64,000 nt of DNA from an uncultured Muribaculaceae bacterium (lineage in GTDB: Bacteria; Bacillota_I; Bacilli_A; RF39; UBA660), in NCBI GenBank assembly GCA_964551965.1, contig CAZKFB010000002.1, forward strand, positions 1,457-65,456, in the 5' to 3' direction. The notes beneath the pieces were generated by a model. That model ran no database searches, was not told the DNA's origin, and was given only the letters and a program-made list of their open reading frames with translations. The position numbers were made by a program, and so were the translations under genes. Shown one piece after another: positions 780 through 26,912 of the stretch. The number at the start of each line of letters is the position of its first letter. Positions within the stretch are counted from its first letter, which is position 1.

Positions 780-1778
780 ATGAAAAGGGTTAGTAAATAC
801 TACAAAAAGTATAAGTCTCGTAGAAACAAACTTATACTTAAAGTTGTAGGAAAAACTGCTGCTTTCATAACATCTTTTGTAGTTGCTGGTTCTCTATTGT
901 TTCATGGATTTCATGGAATAAAAAGTTTATTTCCAGAAAAATCAACTGAAGAAGTAGAGATTGAAAATCAAGTTGAACAAGAAGTTCCTGAAGAAGTTGA
1001 AACCTCAGTTTCAAGTAATGAAATCGTAGAACCAATTGAAACAGCTGAAATTCCAACACCTACAGAAGAAGAAACAGTAGAAGAACAGGTTAGTTATTAT
1101 ATTGGTTCTGAACTATTAGATTCAGGATATGAATTTAAAGATGTTGACTTTGAAAAGTTAACTCAAGAAAACGATGATATCGTTGGTTGGGTTCAAATCG
1201 ATAATACCAAAGTTGACTATGCCATATATCAAGATGAAGATAATGAATATTATTCCCATCATGATGAAAACGGTAATTCAACAAAATCCGGTTCAATATT
1301 CCTAGATGCCAATAACGAATTGTTATCTAACCCAACAGAAGAACTTGATGATTTAAACTTTATTTATGGACATCATATGGCAAATGGCTCGATGTTCTCA
1401 GCAATATGTAGCTATAAAAAGCAATCATTTGTTGATGAAAATCCATTCTTTGTAATATATACAGATGATGGATATGCATATAAATGTGATATCTTTGCTG
1501 GAGTTTTATTCGATGGAGTTACTTCACATTTATATAATAATTATCAAGATTTCGCTGATGAAGAGAGTTTTCAAGAATATATCAATTATATAAATGAAAA
1601 TTCAATGATAACAACTGATGTCGAAGTATCATATGATGATAAAATAGTTGCATTAGTTACATGTTCATATGAAAACGGAATTAATGGTGATTTAAGATTT
1701 GTTGTATTTGCCAAAATGACAAAGCAATACACTGATGAAAATTCAGAAGAAATAAGATTAGAAAGAAAAATCAAATAA
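780..1778 (+). CDS. srtB: Class B sortase (N-terminal TM anchor, acidic linker)
   Basis: Class B N-terminal signature IVGWVQIDNTKVDYAIYQ. Catalytic His in IYGHHM, Cys in LVTCSY, and Arg 11 residues downstream (GDLRFVVFA). Confidence 0.85.
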   Translation: MKRVSKYYKKYKSRRNKLILKVVGKTAAFITSFVVAGSLLFHGFHGIKSLFPEKSTEEVEIENQVEQEVPEEVETSVSSNEIVEPIETAEIPTPTEEETVEEQVSYYIGSELLDSGYEFKDVDFEKLTQENDDIVGWVQIDNTKVDYAIYQDEDNEYYSHHDENGNSTKSGSIFLDANNELLSNPTEELDDLNFIYGHHMANGSMFSAICSYKKQSFVDENPFFVIYTDDGYAYKCDIFAGVLFDGVTSHLYNNYQDFADEESFQEYINYINENSMITTDVEVSYDDKIVALVTCSYENGINGDLRFVVFAKMTKQYTDENSEEIRLERKIK

Positions 1779-2631: not shown

Positions 2632-3624
2632 ATGCTAATATTAGCAAAATCAATATTAGCACTTACATTAGGTTTTGTAATAGCAATAGTAGTTGGAATA
2701 TTAATTATTCCAGTATTAAAAAAATTGAAGGCTGGCCAAAATGTAAGTAGATTTATTAATAAAAGACATTTAAAAAAAGAGGGAACTCCAACAATAGGTG
2801 GTTTAATATTTATAATTCCTCCAATAGTTGCTGTTTTATTATTGTACTTAAGGGGAAGTATTGAATTATCTTATAATTTAATAATTACAATATTTGTTTT
2901 CTTAAGTTATGCCTTATTGGGATTTATCGATGATTTCTTGAAGATTAGATATCACAATAATAAGGGATTATCGACAATAACTAAATTAGTTGCGCAATTA
3001 TTTATTGCTGTTATTTTCTATACGATATATAAATCTAATGGAGGAACGACAGTATTAGAGGTTTCCTTATTTGGAATTAAGTGGGATTTAGGATTTGCTT
3101 ATGGATTATTTATTCTATTCTTACTTGTTGGAACAACAAATGCTGTTAATATTAGTGATGGTCTAGATGGTTTATGTGGAGGACTATCAATCATGGCATT
3201 CCTAGCTTATGGAGTTATTTCTTATGGTAGTGATTGGATTCCTGGATATGATGGAATGGCAATATTCTCATTTGTTCTAGTTGGATCTTTGCTTGGATTC
3301 TTACTATTTAATTCGCATCCAGCAAAAGTATTTATGGGAGATACCGGATCGCTTGCTTTAGGTGGAGCATTAGCAACTATTGCTATATTAACTCATCACG
3401 AATTATCTCTTGCTTTAATTGGTGGAGTATTTGTAATAGAAGCATTATCAAGTTTAATTCAAATAATATCAATTAGAAAATTTGATAAAAAAGTATTCTT
3501 AAAAGCCCCTTTACATCATCATTTTGAAGAGTTAGGATGGCAAGAGACAGACATTGTTAAGATGTTTTGGACAGTTGGATTCCTACTTGCTATGTTTGGT
3601 GTAGTTTATGGAGTTTGGTTATAA
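2632..3624 (+). CDS. mraY: Phospho-N-acetylmuramoyl-pentapeptide transferase
   Basis: 330-aa polytopic protein with MraY hallmarks (GTPTIGG, NAVNISDGLDGL, FMGDTGSLALGG, PLHHHFE). AGGTGGTG Shine-Dalgarno sequence. Confidence 0.95.
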   Translation: MLILAKSILALTLGFVIAIVVGILIIPVLKKLKAGQNVSRFINKRHLKKEGTPTIGGLIFIIPPIVAVLLLYLRGSIELSYNLIITIFVFLSYALLGFIDDFLKIRYHNNKGLSTITKLVAQLFIAVIFYTIYKSNGGTTVLEVSLFGIKWDLGFAYGLFILFLLVGTTNAVNISDGLDGLCGGLSIMAFLAYGVISYGSDWIPGYDGMAIFSFVLVGSLLGFLLFNSHPAKVFMGDTGSLALGGALATIAILTHHELSLALIGGVFVIEALSSLIQIISIRKFDKKVFLKAPLHHHFEELGWQETDIVKMFWTVGFLLAMFGVVYGVWL

Positions 3625-21066: not shown

Positions 21067-21143
21067 GTTCTCGTAGCTCAGTAGGATAGAGCGTTTGCCT
21101 CCTAAGCGAAAGGTCGGGAGTTCGATTCTCCCCGGGAACACCA
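21067..21143 (+). tRNA. tRNA-Arg (anticodon CCU), with encoded CCA
   Basis: Hand-folded cloverleaf. Acceptor GTTCTCG/CGGGAAC, D-arm GCTC-AGTAGGATA-GAGC, anticodon arm TTTGC-CTCCTAA-GCGAA, T-arm GGGAG-TTCGATT-CTCCC, then A and CCA. Confidence 0.9.
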
Positions 21144-23192: not shown

Positions 23193-23465
23193 ATGAATCC
23201 AAGATGTTATGAACAAGAAATGAAGACTACCGATCCAAATATGCAAGAAGCAGTGAATCCCGGTTGTCCATGTCCTCCAGTATATGAATGTCCAGAGACA
23301 AGAGTATGTGAGAGATATATCATGCATGAAGTTCCACACGTTATTCCAGTACATACTAAAATAGTAAATCATCATATAATTCGCCATACATATACACCAT
23401 GCTTTACTATGAGTGAATGTGACACATGTGAACACGTATATGATCCTTGCTGCAAAAACTTCTAG
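23193..23465 (+). CDS. CotD-family spore coat protein-like (Cys/His-rich)
   Basis: The 90-aa protein carries VPHVIPVHTKIVNHHIIRHTYTP, resembling the CotD core. Many Cys and His residues. GGGGA Shine-Dalgarno sequence. The antisense ORF 23148-23435 is treated as spurious. Confidence 0.6.
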   Translation: MNPRCYEQEMKTTDPNMQEAVNPGCPCPPVYECPETRVCERYIMHEVPHVIPVHTKIVNHHIIRHTYTPCFTMSECDTCEHVYDPCCKNF

Positions 23466-23703: not shown

Positions 23704-24123
23704 ATGGACAAGAGAATTATGGATTTGTTCGATTATGGAGAATGTTTAAAAAAAGTTGATAGACTTTTATTAGAATATGAAAGAGCATCATATCGACTTA
23801 CTGGAGATATGAAAAGCTCGTTTGGAATAAATATAAGCAATAAAGGTTATAATAATAATAGAGTATTAAACAATGTTATTAAAACAATCGAAAGTGAAGA
23901 AGAATACACTTATATTTCAAACAAGTTTAAGATGGCTTTTGAGACATTCTGCGAAATTGAAAAAGAATATTTTATGAGATGTATGTTATATCGCAATGTG
24001 ACTGATGAACAATTCTCTGAAGTAATGAATATTTCCATAATGAATATGCGAAAAATTAAAAAGAGTGTAGTATTTAAAATAACGGAAGCTTTTTCCATAT
24101 CGGTTATGAAAGGAGAATTATGA
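23704..24123 (+). CDS. ArpU-family / sigma-70 region-4-like transcriptional regulator
   Basis: The 139-aa protein has size and layout typical of ArpU-like late regulators, with a C-terminal HTH-like segment (FSEVMNISIMNMRKIKKSVVFKITEAF). Confidence 0.5.
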   Translation: MDKRIMDLFDYGECLKKVDRLLLEYERASYRLTGDMKSSFGINISNKGYNNNRVLNNVIKTIESEEEYTYISNKFKMAFETFCEIEKEYFMRCMLYRNVTDEQFSEVMNISIMNMRKIKKSVVFKITEAFSISVMKGEL

Positions 24124-24233
24124 TTTATACATTAATCTTTTTATTATTAGTTTTTGTATTTAGTTGTATGAAAATGTCTAGCTATTGTTCTAGACAAGAA
24201 GAATATAGAGAAAGGAGGGACTTACATTTGTAA
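24120..24233 (+). CDS. 37-aa hydrophobic micro-ORF (MIYTLIFLLLVFVFSCMKMSSYCSRQEEYRERRDLHL)
   Basis: ATGA overlap with the regulator stop codon. One TM-like segment plus a basic tail. Below the ORF-track size cut-off; read directly from the sequence. Confidence 0.4.
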   Translation: MIYTLIFLLLVFVFSCMKMSSYCSRQEEYRERRDLHL

Positions 24234-24243
24234 GTCTTTTTAT

Positions 24244-26400
24244 ATGAAAAAAATAATTAAATATATGGCATTTATATTAGCTGTTTTCTTAATAAATATC
24301 AGTAGTATAAATGCCGAAGAATATAAAGGAGTTATTGAAAAAGGGGAACCTATTAAAGGTGTTTATTATTATAAGACAAGACAGGATACTGAAGATGTAA
24401 AATATCCAACCCATGAATTTCATGAAGCAGCTTATATATATCGTGATTCCATTAACCACAATATCGTATATTGTATAGAATCATGGCAACACCTAACGGG
24501 AGCAACGACAAATGACTATAGAGTATATGATCACAATGTAAAAGAAACTAATTTATCTGATAGCTTAATTGATGAATTAAATCTAGTTGCTTATTATGGA
24601 TATGGTTATAAGGATGATAAATACGATCATACAAGTCCTGAATGGTATGCAGTAACACAAGCTCTTATTTGGCAATTACAAGCGCCAAACTATAGACATT
24701 ATATTACTAATAGTATTTCGTCAACAAAACAAAGTTTTGAGTATGATAAAAAAATAAACGAGTTAAAGAAACTCGTAAGTGTTCATAAGTGGAATCTTTT
24801 TCTAAGTAATATTGATATGGAAATTAATACAGTAGAAGAGGAAGAGGAAAAAACAGGGAACTTAAAGTTTTATGAAATTGATAAATATGATGAAGGAATA
24901 GATGTATCTATTGAGGATCAAAAAGTAATAATTAAATCATTAAATAAAGCGGGAAATTTTTCCTATTCCTTAAGAAGAAAGTTTAATAAATGGAATAAAA
25001 AAATGAAAATATATGTCAGTGATAAATATCAAAATGTCTTAGAGCCTGGAGACATGGAAGATGATGTCGTAACCAAAAATGTTAAAGTTAAAGACCATGT
25101 CCTAAGCTTTATTGTATATGCATTAGTTCCTCAGCAATATACGGAAGATAAACGTAATGTATCTAGAAGTTATTTTTTCCCAGATGTTGAAGTAACTATA
25201 AAGGTAAAGAAAGACATATATGATGGAGCAGGTAATTTAATTTATAAAAAGGGTAGTATTTATTCTACAGAAAAGAGTATTGTTGGTTATTCGAATATTC
25301 ATGTACCATCCGGGACTTTTGAATTAGAGACCATTACTAATATTCCGGGCTTTAAAAGTGCACAAAAAATTGTCGAGATAAACGATAAAGATGAATCAAC
25401 TATTTTAGTGTTAGATATGAGTAAGTTTGTGTTTAATTTAGACAAAACTCTAGAGGTAATGCAAGATAATGGAACAGTATCTCATATTCCAGGACAAAAT
25501 ATATCGTTTGGTTTATATGCTAACGAAGATATAAAGAATATATTTGGGGGAACATTCTTAAAGAAAGATCAATTACTTGCAACTTTTAATACTGACGAAC
25601 ATGGAAAAATTCATAAAACTCAAAGTTTTATATTACCAGGCAAATATTACTTAAAAGAGATCACAGAATTAGATGATTATGAACTTAATAATCAAAAGTA
25701 CGAAGTAACTCTGTCTTATCCTGAAGAGTATCAAGATTCTATTGAATTAGAAGAAATTAAAGTTGAAAACAAACTTAAAACAGGTATATTAGAGATTACA
25801 AAATTGGATGCTAATAAACTATTCCCATTAGAAAATGTAACTTATTCCCTTTATAGTAAAGACAAAAGTTTAATTGAAACAAAATCGACAAATGAATATG
25901 GAAAAGTAAAATTTGATGTAAAAGTTGGAGAATATTTTATAAAGGAAAATACAGCTTTAGATGGATATCTAAAAGATGATAAAACATACTATGTAAAAGT
26001 AGATCATGCTAATTTAAATCCTACATATAAATTGTTAAATGAGAAAATAGAAAACGAAAAAGAACCTGATAAACCAACTGAACCGGAAATCCCTGAAGAA
26101 CCAAAAGATCCTGAAGAACCCAAAGATCCTGAAGAACCAAAAGAAGAAATAGAAAAGCCAATTGAAAAACCGGAAGATAAAATCGAAATACCGGAAGATA
26201 AAGAACAACCAATTATTCCGGAAGATGAAGATAAAGAACCTATTGGTAATAGAGTAGATGAAGAGCCTACTTATGATTCAAATGAGGAGGAAGGTCTAAT
26301 TGTTAACGTACCTAGTACTAATGTATATAATTATTTTTCTATATTATTATTTCTATTAAGTATAACCATTATATCTTTAAGAATATGTTTAAAAGATTAA
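24244..26400 (+). CDS. Surface adhesin: thioester (TQxA) domain, 2 SpaA/CnaB-type domains, PE-rich stalk, non-LPXTG sorting signal
   Basis: Signal peptide. VYCIES (Cys77) and AVTQALIW (Gln139), with a YYGYGY segment between them. CnaB/SpaA-like TGILEITKLD...YGKVKFD...GEYFIKENTALDGY. (PEEPKD)x3 repeat. C-terminus NVPSTN, then the hydrophobic segment FSILLFLLSITIISL, then RICLKD. Confidence 0.75.
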   Translation: MKKIIKYMAFILAVFLINISSINAEEYKGVIEKGEPIKGVYYYKTRQDTEDVKYPTHEFHEAAYIYRDSINHNIVYCIESWQHLTGATTNDYRVYDHNVKETNLSDSLIDELNLVAYYGYGYKDDKYDHTSPEWYAVTQALIWQLQAPNYRHYITNSISSTKQSFEYDKKINELKKLVSVHKWNLFLSNIDMEINTVEEEEEKTGNLKFYEIDKYDEGIDVSIEDQKVIIKSLNKAGNFSYSLRRKFNKWNKKMKIYVSDKYQNVLEPGDMEDDVVTKNVKVKDHVLSFIVYALVPQQYTEDKRNVSRSYFFPDVEVTIKVKKDIYDGAGNLIYKKGSIYSTEKSIVGYSNIHVPSGTFELETITNIPGFKSAQKIVEINDKDESTILVLDMSKFVFNLDKTLEVMQDNGTVSHIPGQNISFGLYANEDIKNIFGGTFLKKDQLLATFNTDEHGKIHKTQSFILPGKYYLKEITELDDYELNNQKYEVTLSYPEEYQDSIELEEIKVENKLKTGILEITKLDANKLFPLENVTYSLYSKDKSLIETKSTNEYGKVKFDVKVGEYFIKENTALDGYLKDDKTYYVKVDHANLNPTYKLLNEKIENEKEPDKPTEPEIPEEPKDPEEPKDPEEPKEEIEKPIEKPEDKIEIPEDKEQPIIPEDEDKEPIGNRVDEEPTYDSNEEEGLIVNVPSTNVYNYFSILLFLLSITIISLRICLKD
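26092..26145 (+). repeat. 18-bp in-frame tandem repeat (PEEPKD x3)
   Basis: cctgaagaaccaaaagat repeated three times with single substitutions. Confidence 0.8.
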
Positions 26401-26912
26401 TTATTTCTATATTAATCATTATAATAAATATATTATCTCTATCTATAATAAGTGATAATACATTTATTGAACCAAATATAGAAAACAATGAAATAATAGA
26501 GAATAAGAAAGATTATTTAGGTATAATAGAAATCCCTAAACTAAAATTAAAGAGATATTTCTATAAAGTAGATGATGAAAAGAATACTGTAGAAAAAAAT
26601 ATCATGCTTATTGAAAAATCATCTATGCCTAATGAAAAGAATGGCAATATCATATTTGCGGCTCATCGGGGGAGATCAAAAGTTGCCTTCTTTGATAAAC
26701 TTCATTTAATTGAATATGGAGATGAGATAATCATATATTACAATAACAAAAAATATACATATCAATATAACAATAGATATGATGTTCCCAAAAATGGTCA
26801 TATCAAAATAATAAGAGATTTAAATAAAACATCTATTACTTTAATTACTTGTAAAAAAGGTACAAGTAAGCAAACTGTGTTCATCGGTTATTTAACAGAC
26901 AATAATTCGTAA
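26385..26912 (+). CDS. Minimal sortase (175 aa), dedicated to the upstream adhesin
   Basis: 16-nt overlap with the adhesin gene. N-terminal TM segment, His in FAAHRG and Cys in TLITCKKG. There is no Arg anywhere downstream of the Cys. Confidence 0.7.
   Translation: MFKRLIISILIIIINILSLSIISDNTFIEPNIENNEIIENKKDYLGIIEIPKLKLKRYFYKVDDEKNTVEKNIMLIEKSSMPNEKNGNIIFAAHRGRSKVAFFDKLHLIEYGDEIIIYYNNKKYTYQYNNRYDVPKNGHIKIIRDLNKTSITLITCKKGTSKQTVFIGYLTDNNS

Follow-up and report, generated by a model that had tools for sequence, protein, structure and literature searches.

Can a sortase dispense with the arginine of its catalytic triad? This question is raised by two overlapping genes at positions 24244-26912 of a stretch of 64,000 nucleotides (nt) from contig CAZKFB010000002.1 of an uncultured small-genome bacterium of the rodent gut, referred to as the window in the following. 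The first gene encodes a thioester-domain adhesin and the second a sortase that carries a glutamine, Gln163, at the site of the catalytic Arg, while reviews and recent papers ascribe a His-Cys-Arg triad to all sortases (e.g. PMC13257024, published in 2026). In our view, the two genes form an adhesin-display cassette served by an active His-Cys-Gln sortase, a reading to which we assign a probability of roughly 0.65. New is the Gln-type sortase family with its V-P-x-T sorting signal; the adhesin family is already known. The pair of open reading frames (ORFs) and the relevant elements of the enzyme are as follows:

24244..26400, + strand: adhesin ORF, 718 amino acids (aa), a class II thioester-domain protein (TIE-type)
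26385..26912, + strand: sortase ORF, 175 aa, overlapping the adhesin ORF by 16 nt
sortase residues 1-24, + strand: N-terminal membrane anchor
26664-26666, + strand: His94 (AAH94RG), the catalytic His
26847-26852, + strand: Thr155-Cys156 (TLITC156), the catalytic Cys with its preceding Thr
26871-26873, + strand: Gln163, site of the catalytic Arg

Fold and sequence both place the 175-aa protein within the sortase superfamily. Pfam Sortase (PF04203) is matched with an expectation value (E) of 1.1e-17 and 64.3 bits (cut-off 26.6), the His and the Cys of the TLxTC motif are present, and a Foldseek search with an AlphaFold2 (AF2) model of the protein (predicted local distance difference test, pLDDT, 73) retrieved more than 30 solved sortases at E around 1e-9 and a template modelling (TM) score around 0.6, the best with E 3e-10. 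The Pfam match spans profile positions 1-116 of 125 and ends just short of the Arg. The sequence-only reading of this locus had pointed out the overlapping gene, the motifs AAHRG and TLITC and the lack of any Arg in the 19 residues past Cys156 (KKGTSKQTVFIGYLTDNNS), all of which is borne out. When a profile of 21 homologues was aligned with sequences from the Protein Data Bank, dkQtvfigyl was matched to SKRYVVAGDL of Bacillus anthracis SrtA (2kw8) and to the DRY motif of Clostridium perfringens SrtD (4d70). Since Q163 is thereby placed on the Arg of both enzymes, we conclude that Gln163 replaces the catalytic Arg. In the model, C156 closes strand beta7 and Q163 opens strand beta8. The His-Cys-Arg triad is not present, a Gln occupying the Arg position at the start of beta8. 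Of the two substitutes that had been proposed, Lys or Gln, it is the Gln that stands.

Conservation was assessed in 226 distinct homologues, made up of 150 representatives of clusters formed at 50% identity after an exhaustive HMMER search with 4,383 hits (497 such clusters reach E <= 1e-30, and the number rises to 1,256 for E <= 1e-10) and of 76 sequences from genomic loci. Residues N67, P82, H94, G96, F103, K136, C156 and Q163 are invariant in 226/226, followed by G138 (225/226), and position 155 is occupied by Thr in 222 and by Ser in 4 cases. Because Gln163 is found without exception, the absence of the Arg is neither due to chance nor to a sequencing slip. A sequencing error or frameshift hiding an Arg is furthermore ruled out by the C-terminus, whose length and sequence are maintained among all close homologues.

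It is conceivable that a basic residue is instead supplied from elsewhere in the fold, by K136 or, in the subclade of the window sortase, by R144, R95 or R97, with Gln163 as a passive replacement. The invariance of K136 and the near invariance of G138 fit this idea, as does position 144, which appeared invariant in a first small alignment and is Arg in 195 and Lys in 18 of the 226 homologues. The window sortase moreover reads AAHRGR at His94. However, position 144 holds Asn, Tyr or other residues in several members, so that R144 had to be rejected as a relocated catalytic Arg that would serve as a universal solution, and at position 95 Ser prevails (151 sequences) while Arg is rare (11). No Arg elsewhere in the fold proved universal among the 226 proteins. 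A Lys also aligns with K136 in the Arg-type homologue L109 (DKSE); the residue is therefore not specific to the Arg-less clade and its case as a compensator specific to that clade is weakened. K136 furthermore aligns to Pro168 of B. anthracis SrtA (BaSrtA), where the beta6/beta7 loop begins. In solved sortases, this loop lines the P4 pocket and not the catalytic centre. As the strict invariance of the Gln itself argues for a functional role, we regard a basic residue from elsewhere as an unlikely solution.

A second line of evidence for the His-Cys-Gln sortase as the partner of the adhesin comes from the sorting signals, for which the scissile Thr is numbered P1. The window adhesin terminates with LIVN-VPSTN(689-693)-VYNYFSILLFLLSITIISL-RICLKD, the stretch around VPSTN reading GLIVNVPSTNVYN. 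The signal is tripartite, consisting of VPSTN, 19 mostly hydrophobic residues and the RICLKD tail, and departs from the LPXTG consensus by Val at P4 and Asn at P1'. In 77/78 distinct sortase loci with a parsed upstream gene, this gene lies on the same strand and ends in V-P-[NSD]-T-x plus a hydrophobic tail, i.e. VPxT stands beside a Gln-type enzyme. The 77 signals are composed as follows:

P6: Val or Ile in 64/77
P5: Glu in 49, Lys in 13 and Asp in 7 of 77
P4: Val in 75/77
P3: Pro in 77/77
P2: Asn in 45, Ser in 15 and Asp in 9 of 77
P1: Thr in 77/77
P1': Gly in 37 and Asn in 11 of 77, then Ser, Met, Leu, Ala, Glu, Lys, Asp, Ile and Val

The family consensus is thus [VI]-[EKD]-V-P-[NSD]-T-[G/N/x], with P2 narrowed to N, S or D, and N-V-P-S-T-N is the signal in both the window and its closest relative, locus L005. 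Because of these position counts, the adhesin signal is best read as LPXTG-type, with Val in place of Leu at P4 and a relaxed P1', and not as SrtB-type. The sequence-only reading was right in describing a tripartite, non-LPXTG signal, while the proposed resemblance to sortase B signals does not hold: the family signal is V-P-[NSD]-T-x and the paired enzyme has no class B match. A Pfam scan of ten of the upstream proteins found the thioester domain (TED) in all nine that are full-length; the tenth is cut at its start and matched SpaA only. Loci L009, L010, L013, L021 and L048 encode short TED adhesins of about 295 aa that end in VPST[SG] and an atypical, barely hydrophobic tail (e.g. IPFASIKFGVLTFFKNDSRYFN), and the sortases of this subclade are the shortest of the family (168-172 aa).

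Some relatives deviate at the site of the Arg. Weaker homologues from the same bacterial family mostly have Gln there, three have Tyr (L096, L100, L102), and Arg is confined to two far more remote homologues (L086, L088). A tree of Gln-, Tyr- and Arg-type sequences left 28 of 64 inner branches open, joined its two Arg-type rows by long branches and carried several wrong state labels; it was used solely for one well-supported clade, comprising the window sortase, L005 and P0048. Three Tyr-type homologues from the same bacterial family are encoded at L105 5592-6167, L106 3892-4479 (- strand) and L107 3509-4048, downstream of TED adhesins that end in KVPDTN, EVPNAY and EVPNAS, respectively, each followed by a tail. 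The adhesins of L106 and L107 have Ala instead of the P1 Thr and weakly hydrophobic tails, so that EVPNA signals pair with two of the three Tyr-type enzymes, a small hint of co-variation. At L108 3454-5531, a TED adhesin with the C-terminus KELPQLYESKNILDILCEKLFIFLFSY (ELPQLY), hence with Leu-Pro and not Val-Pro, is followed by an Arg-type homologue (RYRLIVV). This single case suggests, as another such hint, a co-variation of Arg with Leu and of Gln with Val.

The genome to which the window belongs (1.27 Mb on 74 contigs, completeness 81%, 27% GC) holds four sortase genes, namely that for the Gln-type enzyme described here, a second Gln-type gene on contig 15 that adjoins an adhesin ending in VPATG, and two for SrtB-like enzymes with Arg. 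One of the latter is the gene at 780..1778 of the window, which was correctly described as carrying the expected Arg motif (TCSYENGINGDLR) and matches TIGR03064 with 151 bits. In a scan of all ORFs of this genome for C-terminal signals, only VPSTN, VPATG and one SPKTG protein were detected and LPXTG was found in none. The SPKTG protein (302 aa, C44 4854-5762) ends in this motif plus a hydrophobic tail, which corresponds to a Clostridioides difficile SrtB-type signal. The srtB-like gene of the window is followed, within 780-2537, by a gene whose 247-aa product combines (TPETG)x3 with a hydrophobic segment and a Lys-rich tail of about 50 aa. Both proteins probably are substrates of the SrtB-like enzymes.

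Among 399 genomes of the same class that were surveyed, the Gln-type sortase is present in 33 of the 49 from the window's own family and in 3 of the 350 from other families. The carriers in the own family have genomes of 0.8-1.6 Mb with 1-4 copies each. Related loci stem from gut metagenome-assembled genomes labelled Bacilli, Tenericutes or Mollicutes and, according to record titles, from ruminants, rabbits, rodents, chickens and humans. One occurrence outside the family, G009 C28 9281-9883 in a 2.1 Mb genome, reaches E 2e-75 with the family profile, compared with 1.8e-80 for the window and 3.3e-78 for the best genome of the same family, and may be due to horizontal transfer or to a binning error. 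In the literature, neither a Gln-type sortase nor VPNTG/VPSTG signals were found to be described, and only VPDTG of the pneumococcal pilin RrgC turned up; the coverage of subscription journals being thin, this is no proof of absence.

With its textbook triad incomplete and two Arg-containing SrtB-like enzymes encoded in the same genome, the Gln-type sortase could also be a non-catalytic or hydrolysis-only partner, for instance acting as chaperone, retention factor or releasing protease, leaving any anchoring to the SrtB-like enzymes; VPSTN does have P, T and N in common with the SrtB signal NPQTN. The sequence-only reading had likewise considered a non-catalytic partner and had called the enzyme minimal. 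This is improbable given that His94, Cys156 with its preceding Thr and the TLITC motif are strictly conserved, residues that dead enzymes usually lose. The retention of the cassette in streamlined genomes, the other plausible substrates of the SrtB-like enzymes and the co-occurrence of VPxT with the Gln-type enzyme all point in the same direction, and we consider a catalytically idle partner very unlikely.

The Gln-type sortase reaches the cut-off of no NCBIfam class model. The scores amount to 60.2 of the required 160 bits for class C, 49.8 of 140 for SrtD, 46.7 of 165 for class D and 41.3 of 160 for class E, and classes A, B and F gave no match at E <= 0.01. A DP[FWY] lid motif is lacking, and so is a C-terminal membrane anchor, since the protein ends 19 residues past Cys156; these features would be expected in class C. 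With regard to class B, TIGR03064 is matched only by the ORF at 780..1778, and the family signal is VPxT-x. As judged from its sequence, the enzyme is a natural variant of a known fold without fit to any of classes A-F. A class C-like pilus polymerase joining adhesin molecules to one another and not to the wall, as might be thought because class C sortases are the best NCBIfam and Foldseek matches and the pneumococcal pilin RrgC carries VPDTG as its signal (PMC5640630), is hardly credible in view of the class C score far below cut-off, the missing lid and C-terminal anchor, an adhesin in which a scan found no YPK pilin motif, the single substrate gene per cassette and the solved class II TIE protein BaTIE, for which an LPATG signal and anchoring by a sortase are described (PMC6194298).

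The adhesin itself is a further member of the known TIE family and the ordinary part of the locus. Its elements are:

24244..24315, + strand: Sec signal peptide, residues 1-24, read from the sequence as ending SSINA before EE
24316..25143, + strand: class II thioester domain, residues about 25-300, from Pfam TED, fold matches and conservation
24472-24474 (TGT), + strand: Cys77 of VYCIES, predicted bond-forming
24658-24672, + strand: TQALIW (Gln139/Trp143) of AVTQALIW, helix motif
25030-25032, + strand: Gln263 (KYQNVL), predicted bond-forming
25426..26052, + strand: two SpaA/CnaB-type stalk domains, residues about 395-603, from Pfam SpaA
26053..26307, + strand: wall-spanning stalk rich in Pro, Glu and Lys, with the 18-bp x 2.9 PEEPKD repeat at 26092-26144
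26308..26400, + strand: cell-wall sorting signal and stop codon, with VPSTN 689-693 (26308-26322), hydrophobic residues 694-712 and tail RICLKD

VYCIES with Cys77, the YYGYGY segment (AYYGYGY, residues 116-122), AVTQALIW with Gln139, two SpaA domains, the PEEPKD repeat and the NVPSTN-to-RICLKD terminus had all been named in the sequence-only reading, and all are present. Its identification of a thioester-domain adhesin is likewise supported. Pfam TED matches residues 75-174 with E 2.7e-9, and in a phmmer comparison with the TED of SaTIE (6fx6; E 3.8e-4) FCIE is aligned to YCIES and TQmLIW to TQALIW. An AF2 model of residues 25-340 (pLDDT 87.5) contains a beta-strand block at 166-260, and the best Foldseek matches of the TED model are the class II structures 6fx6 (E 9.3e-11, target TM 0.64), 6fwv and 6fwy, followed by the class I structure 5a0g. 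The Cys motif, Y76-C77-I78-E79, conforms to the [YFL]C-Phi-zeta pattern of class II. Pfam SpaA is matched in two stretches (E 1.4e-23, 83 bits) that align with CnaB domains of BaTIE 6fwv in phmmer; EITK, IKE and LLNEK, picked by eye only, are candidates for isopeptide formation. NCBIfam, including its anchor models, gave no match to the adhesin at E <= 0.01. Ala precedes the predicted signal peptidase site in 66/68 relatives.

With respect to the bond-forming Gln, the earlier assignment has to be revised. Gln139 had been taken as the residue that bonds with Cys77. Miller et al. (2018; PMC6194298) established that the bonding Cys and Gln are the only universally conserved TED residues, that Gln and Trp of the TQxxPhiW motif are dispensable for thioester formation and that class II TEDs place the bonding Gln 170-200 residues past the Cys, with thioesters Cys296-Gln467 in SaTIE and Cys88-Gln292 in EfmTIE86. 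In the window adhesin, TQxxPhiW is present (T138-Q-A-L-I-W143), Q139 and W143 each being kept in 67/68 relatives. C77 is kept in 68/68 and Q263 in 67/68, and both are the sole invariant columns in an alignment of 31 adhesin sequences. Because of this and the spacing of 186 residues (171 in SaTIE, 204 in EfmTIE86), the predicted thioester is Cys77-Gln263, and Gln139 would be a helper Gln beside the bond. The adhesin gene is about 99% identical in contigs from rat, mouse and faecal metagenomes of at least three independent studies. Logan contigs from three rodent-gut studies cover 24244-26120 at this identity and end in the PEEPKD repeat; 26202-26912 is without long cover, which is uninformative on the presence of the sortase in those samples. 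The 16 differences common to these metagenome contigs comprise 11 synonymous and 5 non-synonymous ones. No RNA sample is listed as holding this stretch.

How, then, could a His-Cys-Gln sortase work? Fold, residue correspondence, invariance and gene pairing are observed, whereas we infer activity, cleavage site, wall linkage, thioester and the role of the Gln. In the scheme we propose, the adhesin would be exported via Sec and its class II TED would form the internal Cys77-Gln263 thioester, which could then react covalently with a nucleophile on the target, while the SpaA/CnaB domains and the Pro/Glu stalk would keep the TED away from the cell. VPSTN, the hydrophobic segment and RICLKD would hold the adhesin in the membrane for the sortase, itself membrane-anchored and translationally coupled to the adhesin. 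Cys156 would cleave after Thr692 and pass the adhesin to a peptidoglycan precursor. A peptidoglycan wall is expected because MraY (2632..3624) and a protein resembling FtsW/RodA are encoded in the window. The carboxamide of Gln163 may form hydrogen bonds with the backbone carbonyls of Val-Pro in the signal, the oxyanion being held by Thr155 and backbone amides, and the switch from Leu to Val at P4 would accompany that from Arg to Gln in the clade. In complexes of Streptococcus pyogenes SrtA with LPATA and LPATS peptides, the Arg is hydrogen-bonded to the P4 and P3 carbonyls and lies more than 6 Å away from the P1 carbonyl, and the oxyanion hole consists of the Thr before the Cys and two backbone amides (PMC9520033). 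The same source notes that the role of the Arg is disputed between oxyanion hole and substrate positioning, and that an evolved SrtA with Arg changed to Ser remains efficient with changed specificity. The window sortase is probably an active transpeptidase because Thr-Cys and His are intact and the Arg is changed to a residue that is still able to donate and accept hydrogen bonds. On balance we favour the wider view that a large natural sortase clade operates with His-Cys-Gln (Tyr in a few relatives) and that the exchange co-evolved with that of Leu for Val at P4.

Several points weigh against this interpretation. Class A sortases in which the Arg is changed to Ala are inactive (PMC13257024; PMC9520033), so that loss of the Arg might need compensation, which we could not locate. 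The invariant K136 as well as R95, R97 and R144 of the window protein might each contribute. The structural model of the sortase is of moderate quality and poor around residues 70-100. P1' is highly variable, which is unusual for a wall-anchoring sortase.

The surroundings of the cassette offer some hints at its expression. Upstream of the adhesin we find:

23704..24123, + strand: candidate regulator, a 139-aa cytoplasmic protein, DUF722/ArpU-like or sigma-70 region-4-like
24120..24233, + strand: leader-like ORF of 37 aa (MIYTLIFLLLVFVFSC...), whose start overlaps the regulator stop as ATGA and which ends inside the 3' arm of the hairpin
24214-24241, + strand: 12-bp hairpin, fold -12.5 kcal/mol, z -4.2

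The 139-aa protein weakly matches TIGR02937 (E 0.0036), and the clusters closest to it in the ESM Atlas are DUF722, DUF1492 and Sigma70_r4 (score 0.96). Among the related loci, this ORF is conserved 5' of the adhesin in L005 only. Small regulators resembling it (DUF722/ArpU, sigma-70 region-4) are frequent in phages of Firmicutes. The adhesin ATG is preceded by a single Shine-Dalgarno sequence (AGGAGG, 24213-24218, 25 nt ahead), which is buried in the hairpin, and the leader/hairpin region is 94% identical to that of L005, a value above those for the flanking genes. As far as can be told from the nucleotide sequence, leader ORF and hairpin (24120-24243) may exert leader-peptide or attenuator control over adhesin expression. 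Downstream of the sortase, the window and L005 share a 66-aa rpoZ-like ORF followed by a gene for a P-type ATPase. Further upstream, at 23193-23465, lies an ORF for a 90-aa Cys/His/Pro-rich protein (CPCPPVYECPETRVCERYIMHEVPHVIPVHTKIVNHH) with the look of a CotD-type spore-coat protein, for which a Pfam scan gave no match. Signs of a genomic island are lacking, as base composition is without anomaly and no integrase was seen among the listed ORFs near the upstream tRNA-Arg(CCU) at 21067-21143.

Some related cassettes contain an additional gene. In L015, L023, L029, L031, L041, L070 and others, a secreted or lipoprotein-like protein of 185-220 aa is encoded 5' of the adhesin, combining a low-complexity Glu/Lys/Ser linker with a conserved C-terminal domain containing Cys (WEELGMSEEDYYNKP...C...); it is absent from the window. 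A membrane protein without Pfam name (190-230 aa, about 200 in most; 2-5 predicted helices according to a crude count) follows the Gln-type sortase gene in 11/79 loci:

L002 770-1456, - strand (own genome, contig 15)
L022, L030, L032, L043, L045, L059, L063 and L081-L083

The window cassette has no such gene. From the 11 loci and its absence in the window and L005 we therefore take the third gene as a trait of one subclade.

Should these enzymes prove active, the conserved Arg would stand outside the chemical step and serve as an element of substrate positioning and specificity, which would settle a debate on its role that continues in the sortase literature. The clade represents a ready-made natural experiment: its members are diverse and number in the hundreds, the Gln never varies, and the signal has changed to match. 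If correct, our interpretation would also provide a new orthogonal enzyme/tag pair (VPxT) for protein ligation, for which a VPxT-specific sortase might be useful. The clade furthermore exemplifies the display of covalently binding adhesins in poorly known small-genome gut Bacilli, and the cassettes are among the few surface-anchoring systems that these genomes have kept.

Compared with known systems, the window adhesin shares with SaTIE (6fx6), BaTIE (6fwv) and EfmTIE86 (6fwy) the N-terminal TED with its [YFL]C-Phi-zeta Cys, TQxxPhiW and a bonding Gln some 170-200 residues on, the CnaB/SpaA stalk and the C-terminal sortase signal, 6fx6 being its best match by sequence as well as by fold. It differs by an identity of only about 16%, by VPSTN in place of the LPATG of BaTIE, by a sortase gene of its own that overlaps the adhesin gene and by a thioester that is predicted. 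The sortase resembles 2kw8, 4d70 and the class C enzymes 4d7w (S. agalactiae SrtC1) and 24rr (Enterococcus faecalis Ebp SrtC) in its eight-stranded barrel, the N-terminal anchor, a His that ends beta4, a TLxTC Cys that ends beta7 and a short beta7/beta8 loop. It is set apart by Gln for Arg, VPxT-x substrates and the lack of both a lid and a C-terminal anchor. Class B systems, whether of the C. difficile type with (S/P)PxTG or NVQTG or Staphylococcus aureus SrtB with NPQTN, likewise use non-LPXTG signals, and the genome studied here has SrtB-like enzymes and an SPKTG protein; the paired sortase itself, however, has no class B match, no class B insertions and no Arg. A functional parallel is an evolved S. 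aureus SrtA with Arg197 changed to Ser, selective for LMVGG (PMC9520033), which also works without the Arg. As the loss of Arg goes along with changed specificity in that enzyme, a substrate-positioning role of the Arg is supported. The evolved SrtA was made in the laboratory and carries many further mutations, whereas the clade described here is natural, ancient and diverse and relies on Gln, or on Tyr in a few of its relatives.

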